From contig OX597826.1 in assembly GCA_951406725.2 (NCBI GenBank), forward strand, positions 41,664,001 through 41,728,000: 64,000 bases of DNA, written 5' to 3'. The stretch is from Octopus vulgaris (Eukaryota). The notes beneath the pieces are model-generated. The model ran no database searches. It had not been told where the DNA came from and saw only the letters and a program-made list of their open reading frames with translations. Position numbers and translations under genes: made by a program. Each line of letters starts with the position of its first letter. Position 1 is the first letter of the stretch. This document shows positions 7,404 through 54,751 of this stretch, piece after piece.

Positions 7404-8100
7404 GCATTCACACACACATACACACACAGGGAAAACGTGAATGTATTGTGGATTTCACGTGTTCCATTATCTAATGAATATGGAGTCAATTAAAACAGAA
7501 AAACCAGGAAAATAGAAATATAAACGGAAGTGAAACGACATTTCTTATGCTATGGCAAGATGTCACAAATGTTGCATAGTAAGTTGGCTAACAGACAAAA
7601 TCACAGACAGGAAAACACTCATAAAATGCACGCACGCACATACACAGTTACACACACAAACACACATACAGATATTTCCCAACGAGGTTGTATATATTAT
7701 TTGTATAGATTTTACTTCACATGGAATAACGCGTGACTTGAAACACGTTCATCAGGTTTTTATCCCACAGTGGTTAAATTCTCGTCACAAACGTAACGTT
7801 TTGTGTGAAAGAGAACAAAAGAAGCAATTTTAGAACCGATGGCACGATTCTAAAATAATTCTTCCAGTTATATTTAGAAAACTGTGTTTCTGATTTTAGA
7901 TACGATGGGAAATAATTGCAGAAATCTATAAAAATAACTAACTTGTGTGTATGTGTGTGAGTGTATGTGTGTATGTGTGTACATGTATGTCAATATCGGC
8001 AAAAGGATAGATCTAAGTTTAAATTTAAAATATACATTGCGTTTGTAATTACGTGTTTTCTGTTTATATACAACAGGTCATTTACACATGCTGGTGTGGG

Positions 8101-8283
<183 letters not shown>

Positions 8284-9574
8284 GTCCCTACCAGTATATA
8301 TGTATACAATTATGTGCTGCGGCCGTGCTGGGGCACCGCATTGAAGAATTGTTTTTAGTCTTTTAGTCGTACAAATAAGCCGAGTTACTTTAAAACCTGG
8401 TACTTATTCTATCGTTCGCTTTGGCCGAACTGCTAGAGAATACGGGAATGTAAACACACCAACACCAACTGTCAAGCAGTGGTGGCGGACAAAGATAGGC
8501 ACATATATACACACACACACACACAAACATGTGTGTATATATATATATAACGGGAAGGTTTACGAAAATAACCAAAAGACGAAGGCAGGTGGAGTACAAA
8601 CAAACAAATGTATTAGTATGGCGCTCAGGAATAGAAATAGAAAAAGTCTTTTACGTTTCGAGCCTACGCTCTTCGACAGAAAGATACACAGAAAAAAAAC
8701 AAGGAGAGAAACAAGGAGAGGAAAAAATGCGTGTAGGAGATAACGATTCAACATGGCGTCCTGACTTCGGACAGTGGTCAGACGCGAGAAGGACAGTAGG
8801 GGAGATAACAGGGTCAAGTGACTTCCAAAACGAAGATACCCCCAACATAAAGGCGCGTGTGTGTATAAGAGAGTATGTATGTGCGTGTGAAAGAGGGCTG
8901 GTGGTCTGGACACGTGTATGTGTGTATGAGAACATTTTGTAAATAGGCTTATAAGTGCATCACGTGTCGGTAATCTACACAAAATAAAGGCTGTGAGGCT
9001 AGTTTAAATACTCGGGTAAATATCCTTTAGAAGACAGAAAAAAGTGGTCAGCAAGCCTCCACAGGCGTCTAGGGATCGATTTCCCGTAGAGGCTTCCTGT
9101 CCAATTTTTCCCGTCTCCTAAATGATATTTACCCGATTATTTAAGCCAGCCTCAGAGCTTTCCTGAGTTCCCGAACTCGTGTGTATTATCTATCTATCGA
9201 TCTAAGATTCGCATCTTACTGAAACAAACTAATAACATGTAACTTCTACTAAACGCATTGCGTGTTTCTTTCGCTCGTCCACTTTTCCGTATATACATAA
9301 TTCATCATATGTATATGTCTGTATGTGTATGTATAAGTGCGCATACACACATTATATATGTATATAATATATATAGATGATTTGTGCCGCACTCTCTCCA
9401 TCGAATCGATGTCGTCTGAACAGGTGCACGGTGTACATGTCAGGTGTTGAAGTGATTACAGAACAACATGAGATGAAGTGTTTTGCTCAAGAACACAACG
9501 CACCACCAGGTCTAGGAACTGAAATTACGATCTCGAGATCGTGAATGCAACACTCTAATCACTAAGCCAAGCGA

Positions 9575-47415: not shown

Positions 47416-47599
47416 ATATATATATATATATATAAAGACCAAAATTCTGAAAGACCAAAATCGTGAAACACAGAATACAAAAATTATGAGCCGTGAAGTT
47501 ATAATGTGTTAAAGAATACTCTACATTAATCATACAGATATCTGTGTTGATAACACCTATAAGGAGGTGCTTTTTCCATTCGCCAAAGTGAATGAAACC

Positions 47600-48270
47600 T
47601 TGGCCAGGAGGAATTGATGTCATCAGACGGTATCCAACGTTCATTGGGCGTTTCGATCCTGAACCGTAACACGCATCCACCCGTTGGTGGATCAGCAGAG
47701 TCAATCAAGTCACTACTCCTTATCTACTCCTGGCTCCAAAGCCAACAAGAGGCTCTTTCAGCTGCCTCACCCGTCCTATACAAAGCCACCCTTCGCTCTT
47801 CACCTCTCATTCCAATTGTTGTAAGCATCCTCCATGCTGAATGAGCAGGGAATCCTCTACAGCCAATCTAGACTGGGAAAAGCCATACCTGCCATCTCTT
47901 CTCCCTGTAGAAACCTCATATCTCGCACGCTTCCGTTCATGGGCTTCATTATGCCGCTCTTCCCACGGGACTGTGAGTTCAATTACGATAATTTTCATGG
48001 CATTTTCAGACCACAGGACCACATCTGGCCTCAGGATTGTATAGACAACCTGGGGGAACTGCAATCTCTCCTCTACGTCTACTTTCATATCCTATGTTTG
48101 TGAGTGTGTGTGTGTGTGTGTGTGCAGCAAGCTATGTAATGTTTTTGTTGACTTACTGGTCTGTCTCTCTCTCTCTTTCACGAACTTAATTGCTGCTGTT
48201 GCCTTCCCTTAGAGATGATATTCCTTGTGCCTTTCCTCCAGCTTCCATAGGTTCCAGCTTTCATAGGTCA
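47600..48270 (-). mobile_element. HERO-like RLE non-LTR retrotransposon 3' fragment
   Basis: LRPDVVLWS...IELTVPWEE...ERKRARYE (PD-D/E endonuclease), then GCRGF and EAAERASCWLW after a frameshift. Confidence 0.8.
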
Positions 48271-48699
48271 GTCTATGTGAGCTTGTTCATAGAGAGGTCC
48301 CATCTAGTCCATGCATCCTGAAATACCAATTACACAACTCTCGACTTCCTTCCCAAGAATACAACAGGGATGTGGCTAGAGTCTCACGAGGCTAACTATG
48401 AAATGGGCGAATGACCAACTATGTTGGTCGTTTCGGTTAAGAATGTTGTTTTGAAAGTGTGTAATATATCTGTCTCTGGACAGTATTGACTACCTGGTCA
48501 AGTTTATGATTAATACTGTCCGGAGAATATACACCACGAGCAAGGATAACAGGGCAATTAATAACTATGTTGCAAATACGGACAGCGACCATATCAGCAA
48601 CAACACAAATAAAAATGAAGATGAAAATAAAAACTTTTGTTCTTCAAAAGTTTTTCACTCAAACCCCAATCTAATTATGGGGACAGGAAGCATGTCGTA

Positions 48700-48985
48700 T
48701 ACAAAGGTAAAAACAGGAAGAAACGTGACGTAACATAGTATAACTCTCCCTTCAATTACGTAATACATACTAATATAAGTAGAAAACTATTTAGTATACT
48801 AAAGCGCGACCTTACTCCCTCACAGAAGTATTACCGCTTATCCTCCTGTAGGGTTTCCTGCCTAACACTCCCCAATTTAGGTACAATTATAGCTGGCCTG
48901 AATAAGAAACACATATCCATGGCCCAAAGTAGTAATAATACCCTTAGTAGTAACGCTCCAAATTAAAATAGCAGTAAGAAAAACG

Positions 48986-49016
<31 letters not shown>

Positions 49017-49017
49017 C

Positions 49018-49068
<51 letters not shown>

Positions 49069-50030
49069 CTTATCACCACTATCTCTACCGACACTAATAC
49101 TGTATACAACAATACCAACAGCGAGCTAGTATTGTCAGTGAGTAGATGTTATACTACTGACAAGAATCAGCCAGCCACAAATAGGGATAGCAGCCGTACC
49201 AACTATGTCACAACTATCAATAGTAGCAGCGGTATGGATTCCACCAGCTTAAGCTCATACAATATTGCTCCCTACAACACTCTCTCCACTAGCTCTAATG
49301 ACAGCCCACCTACTCCCATTTATGTTGCCGATATGTTAAACGCACAGAACTCTAACACCTGTGTTGGTAATCTTTCCATTATACCACCCACCCTCGACCC
49401 TTTAGTGTCACTATCTGAAAATCAAATCTCTTACGTCAGCGCCAGTCTCAACAGTCTGCGACCCAAGATTCGGCAACTAATTTTAATCATAATAGTATTG
49501 ATCATAGTAATATAAACCCCAGCAACTAACTCTCGCGAGCTTGAACTATTACGCAATGATAACGTTGGATCATGTACCCGTAACAATAAATTTCAAGTAT
49601 TAGAAAATATTGGGTGCAATTGTTTAGACAAAATATCTCGTCCACTTTCTGGTCAATGTTTAGCAGAAAATATGATTTACAAATGTGATGTAATGGAAAC
49701 CACTATTGATCGACTGTTCAGTAAATCTCAAGGGACGCTTAGGCAATCACTATTCATCCTTTAAATTAAGACGTAGGGCTGGCAAGACGTCTCTAGCCAT
49801 GAAGATTTGGGAACTCAAGGACGACAATGTTAAATTTGACTTGAATTGCGACATCATTATGGTCGCTAAACCGTACTTAAACAGTAGATACGGATACAAA
49901 CTTTGCTGCATGGTGCTATTTGAAATTTTAAGATCTAAGATCTAATTTTAAGAGAAAAATCTACTAAATAATAAAATAGAACTTCGTCTTCCTGTATACA
50001 TATGGCTACCCACACGTTTAAATACTTTAA
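48700..50030 (+). mobile_element. Decayed Penelope-like element (RT thumb remnant, N-rich linker, GIY-YIG endonuclease)
   Basis: TPNLGTIIAGLNKK-like segment near 48860; GCNC..RPLSGQCLAENMIYK (~49610); KGRLGNHYSSF..TSLAMKIWELKD..KPY..KLC..LLN. These match the C-terminal GIY-YIG signature of Penelope-like elements. Confidence 0.75.
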
Positions 50031-51066
50031 GGACATTAAACACCCCCCCTATAATAGGCGCCAATCTAGGTCCAATCCAATTTACTCCCTCTTTCATTAA
50101 CCCATTCGTCTATCGATCTACCCATTCGTTTCTGAGTTCTCCTGGTCTCGTTTTCCCCTTTACCAATACCTTCTAACCGCTCTAACTATACTTACATGGT
50201 ACGCTATATTGAAGGAATGAATCGTTCTATCTGTGGTGTACTCGGTATTATGCGATAGCAATGACAATGACACTTAACCTCTAGTAGCAGCCTGCACACC
50301 CTAGACAGTTCATTTCCATTCCTATTAAGTAAGTACTCCTTACACCGACATACAGTTTGTTTTTTATAAACACCCGTTTAACATTCCAAATTGTTAATCT
50401 TTAGACTACCCCCTACTGCTGGCTTTCCTTATTATCTCATCTGCTTTTTCTTCTCACTCTATGTTAGGTGTAGTTCATTATATAATCCCATCCTTCTTTA
50501 AATTCTTTAAACTCATTATTGATAGGGTGCACTCTACTATAACTTCAATTCTATAAACGTTTGACCTTCGTACCCACCCCCTACTTTCAACCAATATCCA
50601 CTAAATACCCGTAGATCTCTGTGTTTCTCTGTACCCCTCCCTTAGTTATTTACCATCAGCTAGAAGTTTCTATGCCACGACCCTATACCTGATTGGCTTA
50701 GTTGGTTTTACTTTAAATTTTAAATTTCCCTTCACTCTTACGTTTGATTTATTTATCATTTCTTTTCCCCTTCTATAATAAATTATCTCTTACACCCCAC
50801 CCCAGACTACACACTTTCAAGAACTACATTCTTAATCTAAACGGCCAACATAGTTGGTCATTCTCCCATTTCATAGTTGGCCTCGACAGACTCTGGGCAC
50901 ATCCCTGCTGTATTCTTGGGTTATTCATTTCTTTTGTAACATTGCTTCTCGTCTGAATATTACGGTCTTTTATAATGATGTAATGTTTTCATTCTTCTAT
51001 TAAAACGTACGTAAGAAACAGATGTTATGAGCAGATAATTATTCATCGTATGTTATTATTCATTTG

Positions 51067-51122
<56 letters not shown>

Positions 51123-51132
51123 TACATGTATG

Positions 51133-51190
<58 letters not shown>

Positions 51191-51242
51191 CATGTATAGA
51201 ACCCGCCACATGTCTAAATTTAATTTTCATAGCATTTTTTTG

Positions 51243-51316
51243 ATGGCCTGATAACTGAAGAGATGCCGCCGTGGGTTTCCGCCCCGACATCCGAAACTCG
51301 GAGTTTTATCATGGCT
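51243..51316 (+). ncRNA. Type I minimal hammerhead ribozyme motif
   Basis: Stem I TGATAA/TTATCA; core CTGAAGA (51255-61); stem II GATG/CATC; GAAA (51293-96); stem III CTC-G-GAG; GUU cleavage triplet. Confidence 0.7.
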
Positions 51317-52131
51317 ACCGAATAATTGTCACATATTATATTTACAGCTATATTATATATCATCTATATATATATATTTATATATATATATATATATGTA
51401 TGTATATATGTACGCACAGACCCCACCATGCACACGCGCACGAGCGCACACACACATACGTATGTATTGCACGACATGGTATCATTAAGTAACGAAATTC
51501 TGTGGGATGGGGCATCATCTCAAATCATCCACGACAACTCGGCCATCTTTATAGGCTAAAGCACTAAAGCTATTTGCTCAATCATCCTACCAAACAATGA
51601 CCTACAATAAATTTTATCGCACATAAAACCATCAAAACATGACGTACATAATTTCATAAGTAGTTATACTGTCCTTCGTATCCAGGAGAGATTTTCCTCC
51701 GTCTGTGGGCGATACGCTTCTTTTGCATTGCCTCATTCACCACCACCACCACCATCACCACCACCACCACCACCACCACCACCACCATCACCACCACCTT
51801 CACCAGCACCAGCACCGTCAGCAACCACCAGCACCATCAGCACCACCAACACCACCAGCAGTACTAGCACCACCATCACTATTACCACCACTCCCAATAA
51901 AAGTAACAAATTTGAAAGTAATTGTGTGCAATACATACATACATACAGACATACATGTAAATATATGAGAATATATGCATATAAATGTGTGTGTGTGCGT
52001 GTGTGTATATAAATATATGTATGTATGTATATATTCTTTTATCCTTTTATGTTTCAGCCTTATGGCTGTGGTCACGCTGGGCACCTTATATATGTGCATG
52101 CATACATACATACATACATACATACATACAT

Positions 52132-53539: not shown

Positions 53540-54751
53540 TGCTGAAAAGAGAAGAGAAGAATATCCAATGTGTTGGCAGCGATCTTTTCAAGAAGCACTC
53601 TCTTCCTGATGACCTCCCATACATTCGGGCATGTTTCCCGAAGACTTGAAGACGACAGTAATATCGACATCAGGTGCAGACGTTTTTGGAATCCCTACAT
53701 CACATCACACTTCGAAGGCTATGCATTTGCAATCCAAGGGCAGGAGATGGCTACGAAATAGCTAATATGCAAAAGAGACAGACAAGCACTTGGAGCCCCA
53801 AGATGCAACTGAAACTGTCGATTATATTATGTTTCTTGTGGTTAGCAGCTGCCAAAGCTATATACAGTGCCATTCGGTGAAAGACTGATCTGGAATAAAT
53901 ATAGAGAACCCCACTATTATTGAATATATTCACAGACATTAACACAAGGAATACAGGTGGCACATTCCTGCCAAAATATTTACCAAGAGTAAAGATATTA
54001 TTGAATGGTTGTATACTGTCAATCTAACAAGAACGTGGCAGTAGGGGGTACACCACCGCTGTATAGCCCTAGGAAGCATCGAACGCCTCCTGATGGCTTT
54101 GACACATTTTTTTCCTGTGTCCTTATATACATTTACGAAGGGGAGACAAATGTATATAAGGACACAGGGTAAAATGTGTCAAAGCCATCAGGAGGCGTTC
54201 GATGCTTCCTAGGGCTATACAGCGGTGGTGTACCCCCTACTGTCACGTTCTTGTTAGATTGACAGTATACAACCATTCTATCGCCCCACCACCGTACATG
54301 TCTCTACAAGAGATTTAGAAATTCAATATTTCTTATAAAGATATTATTGTTTGAGACAAAAGAAAAGTATTTACCGTCAGAGAGGTTAGCTGTCCTGCGG
54401 ATGAGAATATCTTTTTAAAAATCAAAGAGGAAGAGAATAACTATGGGCAACTGCTTCAGAACACCCAACTTCTATATCCAGATTTTACATTCACAGTTAT
54501 ACCAATAGCAATTTGTGCACTTAGTTTTGTGAGTAAATACCTAAGTAAAAATCGGAATAAACAACGGTTTTCACAAAAAGAAATCAAATAACTTTCAAAT
54601 ACAGTCTGTAAGTGGAACAGTAAAAATATGCAAGTTCAAAATGTGACATTGTTTTTATTACCTTTATTTCAATGATGGAGTTCTGTATCTTTGTTAGAAA
54701 CCAGCTCCTTCCTCTGTGAAAGAATTCAAATAATTAAATGCAAAAGAGAAC

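Follow-up and report, generated by a model that had tools for sequence, protein, structure and literature searches.

A hammerhead ribozyme motif that lies close behind the remains of a Penelope-like element (PLE) on the same strand raises the question whether the two belong together, or whether the ribozyme came from elsewhere. This question is posed by the window studied here, a stretch of 64,000 nucleotides of the Octopus vulgaris genome (assembly GCA_951406725.2, contig OX597826.1, positions 41,664,001 to 41,728,000), for which a first-pass annotation had made the neighbouring element the partner of the motif. Our analysis leads to another answer. The motif is very probably the 3' terminal-repeat hammerhead of a separate lineage, termed B, left as a 125-bp truncated fragment that was likely inserted in a TA microsatellite behind an older and unrelated family, termed A. 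The fragment belongs to lineage B, the B hammerhead is linked to the B open reading frame (ORF) at both of its ends, and family A has a separate hammerhead of its own; the real partner of the B hammerhead is another ORF, with Hydra-clade features, located at other places in the genome. The features are collected in Table 1.

Table 1. Features of the A-B region in window coordinates, with strand and the evidence behind each.
Feature	Position	Strand	Evidence or remark
Inverted 5' arm of the family-A insertion	48352-48511	-	Self-BLAST; match in L037/L124
Decayed, 5'-truncated element of family A (probably Hydra-clade Penelope-like)	48512-51068	+	Matches of 72-85% over numerous loci
CxCx5C-type linker (last C lost) and frameshifted GIY-YIG remnant, family A	49615-50000	+	Translations
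Family A's own type I hammerhead, broken here	50948-51031	+	A 3'-end alignment; one-mismatch descriptor match at 50953
(TA)n/(TG)n microsatellite and short spacer, A end to B fragment	51069-51222		Likely insertion target
5'-truncated 3' end (pLTR of the short-end type, lacking the ~65-nt tail), subfamily B1, assigned by its features to Hydra-clade Penelope-like elements	51223-51347	+	91-97% identity to the best 30 other places
Type I hammerhead motif	51243-51316	+	All named words read from the sequence
Stem I 5' strand and extension	51244-51254	+	Stem I 51249/51250-51254; extension 51244-51248 pairs with 51313-51317
Core C3-A9, CUGAAGA, intact	51255-51261	+	Each letter in 88-98% of 58 copies
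Stem II and one extra pyrimidine before G12	51262-51292	+	GAUG/CAUC base, internal mismatches, GUGG-GUUU-CCGC hairpin
GAAA core, near-palindromic stem III ACUC-G-GAGU, U16.1, U17	51293-51305	+	Predicted cut after 51305
Stem I 3' strand and extension	51306-51317	+	Sequence, pair counts

As regards the motif itself, the window copy has C3, U4, G5, A6, N7, G8 and A9, then G12, A13 and A14, the A15.1-U16.1 pair and H17, all of them conserved over 58 copies. Stem I pairs UGAUAA (51249-51254) with UUAUCA (51306-51311), its 5' strand together with the extension showing pair probabilities of 0.65-0.995, and GAAA (51293-51296) leads into stem III (51296-51304) and then GUU. Both direct reading and a strict descriptor recovered CUGAAGA, GAAA, the CTC/GAG stem III and the GUU site exactly where the first-pass annotation had put them, while its description of the other two stems needs some correction. 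The words of its perfect 6-bp stem I are in place, but the sixth pair depends on T at 51249, a minority letter (10 of 58 copies), and of 14 aligned copies 7 leave this pair open. Its GC-rich stem II exists, but an extra C (51292 or 51291) between GAUG/CAUC and GAAA had been overlooked; in addition, the window copy has C at 51269 in place of the majority G (43 of 58 copies), at the cost of one stem II pair.

The strict descriptor, composed post hoc with the motif already known, gave 51243-51316 as its sole exact-core match in the window and none in 100 composition-matched control windows. Over the 14 aligned copies 89% of the cells pair, against 34-52% in slid controls, and the covariation score was not above that of shuffles (159/500). 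The Rfam hammerhead models gave no match to 51200-51360 at E<=10, and a whole-window Rfam scan returned no hammerhead among the matches listed (150 of 326), which were mostly microsatellite miRNA matches; the repeat search of the window was likewise swamped by microsatellites. The hammerhead is not the predicted fold of the monomer (MFE z -0.87): stem III has a monomer pair probability of about 0.01, and its self-duplex with a second copy is put at -9.7 kcal/mol. Judged by its sequence, we regard the motif as a genuine hammerhead motif, with cleavage predicted. Two further readings, a chance motif and a ribozyme of a host gene, were rejected.

Other structures were seen in the same window. The stretch 2897-2990 on the forward strand, with its core at 2909, is type I hammerhead-like and has CUGACGA, a 13-bp stem II, a palindromic stem III and GUA; its stem I is only 4 bp long, and its sequence is unrelated to A and B. 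At 54043-54238 there is a long near-perfect, MITE-like hairpin with arms of about 90 bp, which Rfam matches to MIR2670 under the gathering score.

Relatives of the fragment are abundant in its own genome. A search with 51190-51335 returned 1,956 first-look candidates, the best places being 91-97% identical, and most genome matches begin at the equivalent of 51223 (query base 34); for a 23-nt core word of the 3' half, 7,788 exact genome matches were counted, against 0 for its control. Aligned lineage-B copies share further sequence upstream of the window fragment, which itself ends at the common short end, 42 nt past the cut site. When the 3' ends of 45 copies were scored, 22 proved short (about 42 nt after the cut), 22 carried an extra tail of about 65 nt and one lay at a locus edge, and the copies are mostly followed by TA/CA runs, in line with what is described for PLE tails (PMC11167929). 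The tail sequence is precisely where long B copies start in L151, L155, L156 and L138, those of L151 and L156 being preceded by (GATA)n; what forms the tail at the 3' end of one unit thus opens the following unit at its 5' end. Eight loci (L002, L006, L008, L010, L011, L021, L074 and L079) have two scored B hammerheads on opposite strands, combining a short with a tailed copy in five cases, two short copies in two and two tailed copies in one.

Two subfamilies can be distinguished, namely B1, to which the window copy belongs, and B2, which is about 80% identical to it and carries U4C (CCGAAGA). The extra pyrimidine before GAAA occurs in 1,791 exact matches with CUGAAGA and 3,483 with CCGAAGA (5,274 in total) and is missing in 1; it is fixed across lineage B, and can be placed either before G12 or as a bulge after a G-Y pair. 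Since the CCGAAGA copies among the matches listed are nearly identical and include intact arrays, the youngest subfamily has U4C too. The intact ORFs are those of B2, and none of B1 was found among the loci examined. A very young tandem array of B2 units, each of 2.58 kb, was observed in L169 (G000:C1:57208300-57217300) together with listed matches up to 57222541, with four units in one orientation and two in the opposite one; the array holds intact 708-aa ORFs and the U4C hammerhead, and its units are 99.7-99.96% alike, two of three having an open 708-aa frame.

The B hammerhead was found joined to the B ORF on either side. None of 29 other hammerhead loci (L002-L030) matches window 47500-51068, and five of them show the endonuclease motifs of B; in three of these five the linker and GIY-YIG lie on the strand of the hammerhead, about 1 kb upstream of it. 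A search with the B endonuclease gave, apart from the query, 29 loci, in 15 of which the B hammerhead lies 3' of the endonuclease on the same strand and is connected with it by a shared 3' UTR; two of these 15 are partial and three are near-duplicates (L067, L077, L082), and the remaining loci have broken or unreached 3' ends. At the other end, a search with the N-terminal RT region of B placed the hammerhead directly upstream of the ORF, as a 5' pLTR, in 9 of 30 loci; several additional loci have it as an inverted arm. The distance from hammerhead to ATG is 209-215 nt in three of four copies examined, and in L161 and L162 hammerheads flank the ORF on both sides.

The unit that emerges is a single ORF with RT and C-terminal GIY-YIG, 708 aa long in 2.58 kb, with its hammerhead in the pLTR, insertion in (TA)n and inverted 5' copies. 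Its RT motifs RWK and DKT were read by eye as MRWKAFF and SDKTKN in L162, L163 and L169, and its linker and endonuclease show CSCRNKELC (CxCx5C), CGLC (CxxC) and CPH (CxH) flanking the endonuclease E and N. Against Pfam the B protein gives GIY-YIG only below the cut-off (E 0.017), and a search by sequence found no relatives in PDB. Fragments of PLEs from other clades lie directly behind B copies in L162 (4596-5100) and L165 (4354-5500), including a CCHH-type GIY-YIG and an RT thumb, and represent further PLE nesting in shared sites. Pieces of two more Hydra-type PLE families, 30-47% identical to B, were noticed in L121 (reverse strand 8063-9360) and L127 (reverse strand 548-754).

The neighbouring family-A copy consists of a post-thumb region, a low-complexity insert, the linker, the GIY-YIG and a 3' UTR. 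No RT match was obtained in the window, this copy being without RT, and a C-terminal RT fragment lies upstream in the family-A locus L124. Between thumb and CxCx5C linker, family A has an insert of about 200 aa rich in Asn, Ser and Thr and including an (AAT)n run (window 48970-49600), the DNA of which is common to many A copies. In the inverted arm, 48352-48463 is the reverse of 50808-50920 at 89%, and 48473-48511 is a short inverted piece of sequence from further upstream in the element. The equivalent of 51068 is where family-A copies end and pass into TA/CA runs, and their own hammerhead is found about 40 nt before this (TA)n end. In aligned A ends it reads CUCAU, CUGAUGA, a long stem II, the palindromic ACAGCUGU and GUA, and both core halves are intact in 9 of 23 scorable other copies (6 of 29 unscored); in the window, CUGAAUA stands for CUGAUGA, by which G8 is lost, and the palindrome is interrupted at 51022. 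The linker CNCLDKTSC occurs in L127 and relatives, CxxC is also present, and family A appears from these sequences to be Penelope-like of the Hydra clade. Pfam did not recognise its fragments. Between A and B the endonucleases share about 33% protein identity, with no significant DNA match.

Among the other explanations, the one that fares best takes the fragment as a non-coding retrozyme or mini-element unit which spreads on its own with Penelope proteins acting in trans. Most B hammerhead copies are short and have no ORF nearby, and animal retrozymes are reported as derived from PLE pLTRs in the accessible part of a preprint (bioRxiv 10.64898/2026.07.22.740005). However, the 5' ends of the copies are scattered along one element that continues into the ORF, L001-L030 hold only inverted pairs and no short tandem monomers, and all tandems observed consist of complete coding units of 2.58 kb, so that we consider this explanation very improbable. 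Nor does the motif look like a non-LTR retrozyme, for which short tandem units without coding sequence and with one hammerhead apiece would be expected: it is single in the window, short tandems are absent from L001-L030, and it is contiguous with a coding element.

Even less probable is the proposal of the first-pass annotation, by which the hammerhead would be the pseudo-LTR ribozyme of the adjacent family-A element and this element its autonomous partner. Part of it holds: the hammerhead does come from the pseudo-LTR of a Penelope-like element, and the strand of the hammerhead does carry a GIY-YIG remnant at about 49615-50000, although the element to which this remnant belongs reaches 51068 rather than 50030. 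The attribution to the decayed element at 48700-50030 does not hold. The two share a strand, with the B motif 155 bp past A's end, but A's own hammerhead sits in the expected place, and the B hammerhead is tied to a different ORF. The link was expected to recur 3' of other copies of the GIY-YIG family, and yet the B hammerhead was found within 1.5 kb at 0 of 29 other family-A 3' ends; at family-A endonuclease loci only 1 of 29 others has a related hammerhead (the two sets share four loci, and many endonuclease loci have short 3' flanks). This single case, L034, has a hammerhead pair about 330 bp beyond a broken A 3' end, but the pair is of the B2 form (80%), inverted, differently arranged and separated from A by other repeats. 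Moreover, since the family-A copy in the window has lost its RT, it is not an autonomous partner. The weakest explanation, a chimeric A-B transcript or template switch that left the B ribozyme serving A here, would suit the one-strand adjacency and the broken ribozyme of A, but with the junction absent from all 29 other A 3' ends, a microsatellite and spacer of 155 bp between the two families and no RT in the A copy here, it deserves hardly any credence.

The preferred reading, a truncated end of lineage B inserted behind an older A copy, can be followed through known PLE biology. According to the accessible part of PMC11167929, AT-rich DNA is cut by the PLE protein, and reverse transcription begins at either of two internal sites, which define the tail. 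By analogy, the B protein would have nicked AT-rich DNA, with reverse transcription primed some 42 nt beyond the hammerhead cut, on its 3' side, and halted after about 125 nt; the window fragment most likely stems from an insertion that was primed at the short end and then aborted. Where elements stand intact in tandem, cleavage by the hammerhead would require either a dimer, formed through the near-palindromic stem III, or the help of protein. The window fragment lacks a second copy in cis, for which reason little activity is predicted for it, and no host function is expected of this lone copy.

The adjacency and the order of the two insertions can be treated in the same frame. Under uniform insertion, the 7,788 core-word matches give a chance of about 0.2% that a given site has a B copy on its own strand less than 1.5 kb away, and a shared (TA)n preference is therefore needed to explain why A and B are neighbours. 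A and B lie side by side in two other sampled loci in other arrangements (L034, L066), those in L066 standing tail to tail across a TA run. No target-site duplication is readable in the microsatellite at 51069-51222, thus the order rests on divergence: the best matches are 91-97% identical for B and 81-88% for A, and the closer resemblance among B copies suggests that B most likely inserted later than A. Families with a common (TA)n target pile up, so that adjacency is no proof of a tie between a ribozyme and an ORF. The locus itself carries little weight, being one among thousands of truncated Penelope ends.

Transcript data were available from three raw RNA runs of one study, the species of which may differ from that of this genome and of which 6 in 100 reads were sampled. 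Lineage B is covered in both orientations, 69-81% of the placed reads continue into unlike flanks, and no piled-up read ends occur anywhere, including the cut site, which has no bearing on cleavage either way.

The window copy is an ordinary truncated member of an undescribed family in a known clade. The openly available literature surveyed, together with the supplement of PMC8557442, held no description of family B or of a 3'-side extra base. It is possible, though we lean somewhat against it, that lineage B carries a natural hammerhead variant, defined by the fixed extra 3'-side pyrimidine at the stem II closure plus U4C in the youngest, ORF-intact subfamily. Such a variant would either still cleave by means of dimer, loop or protein compensation or be crippled, in which case the subfamily with the greatest success would have spread in spite of an impaired ribozyme. 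The second case would provide genome-scale evidence that cleavage is dispensable in Penelope-like transposition. As for what is known in other systems, U4C is a natural variant of viroid hammerheads with lowered but sufficient activity (PMC3088659, accessible part), and the hammerhead of one tested element is protein-assisted and dispensable for insertion in vitro (PMC11167929, accessible part). Lineage B offers a handy test set for the role of the hammerhead in PLEs, with intact tandem coding copies, two natural cores (U4 and C4) and a shared extra base.

Comparison with known systems, within the accessible parts of the sources, places lineage B as follows. The C-terminal EN+ PLEs of the Hydra clade are characterised by RWK, DKT, CxCx5C, CxxC plus CxH, a short unit, (TA)n and a hammerhead (Craig et al. 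2021, PMC8557442). Lineage B shares all of these, with a unit below 3 kb, (TA)n targets and a 3' hammerhead, and by these features it would be a Hydra-clade PLE. Its stem III, actc-g-gagt, is that of Hydra-2_aMil and Penelope-16_HM in File S2 of the same paper, where U17 is common and the stem II closure is variable in Hydra elements; that file, however, has no row with a G-C closure of stem II followed by an additional 3' pyrimidine and none with a CCGA core, both of which occur in B, and neither B nor A is among the elements of the supplement. Family A differs from the clade in its low-complexity insert of about 200 aa and its long stem II loop.

Hydra-1_Obim, from Octopus bimaculoides (PMC8557442), is of the same clade and related to B: its hammerhead likewise begins CUGAAGAG-AUG and cuts after GUU, and about 59 of 105 RT residues, counted by eye, are identical to the L062 ORF. 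On the other hand, its stems I-III and 3' UTR are different, its stem II closes with A-U and an unpaired 5' G, and it is reported without pLTR, whereas B has pLTR-ORF-pLTR copies; Hydra-1_Obim is a related but separate family. PAc, a Poseidon element of Anolis (PMC11167929, accessible part), resembles B in having two 3' ends, that is, an optional tail past the hammerhead, in its AT-rich targets and in showing no RNA-seq ends at the cut site. It belongs to another clade, however, its tail is 30-40 bp against about 65 bp, and its hammerhead overlaps the ORF start, whereas that of B lies about 210 nt before the ORF. Finally, the metazoan PLE hammerheads described by Cervera and de la Pena (2014, PMC4209133, accessible part) agree with B in being type I and lying in the pLTR, with a 5-bp stem I, a long stem II and a short palindromic stem III, from which dimer action and weak cleavage are expected, and in occurring as thousands of single truncated copies and as opposite-strand pairs; they differ in that their unpaired nucleotide is 5' of stem II, between 9 and 10.1, whereas in lineage B it is on the 3' side.
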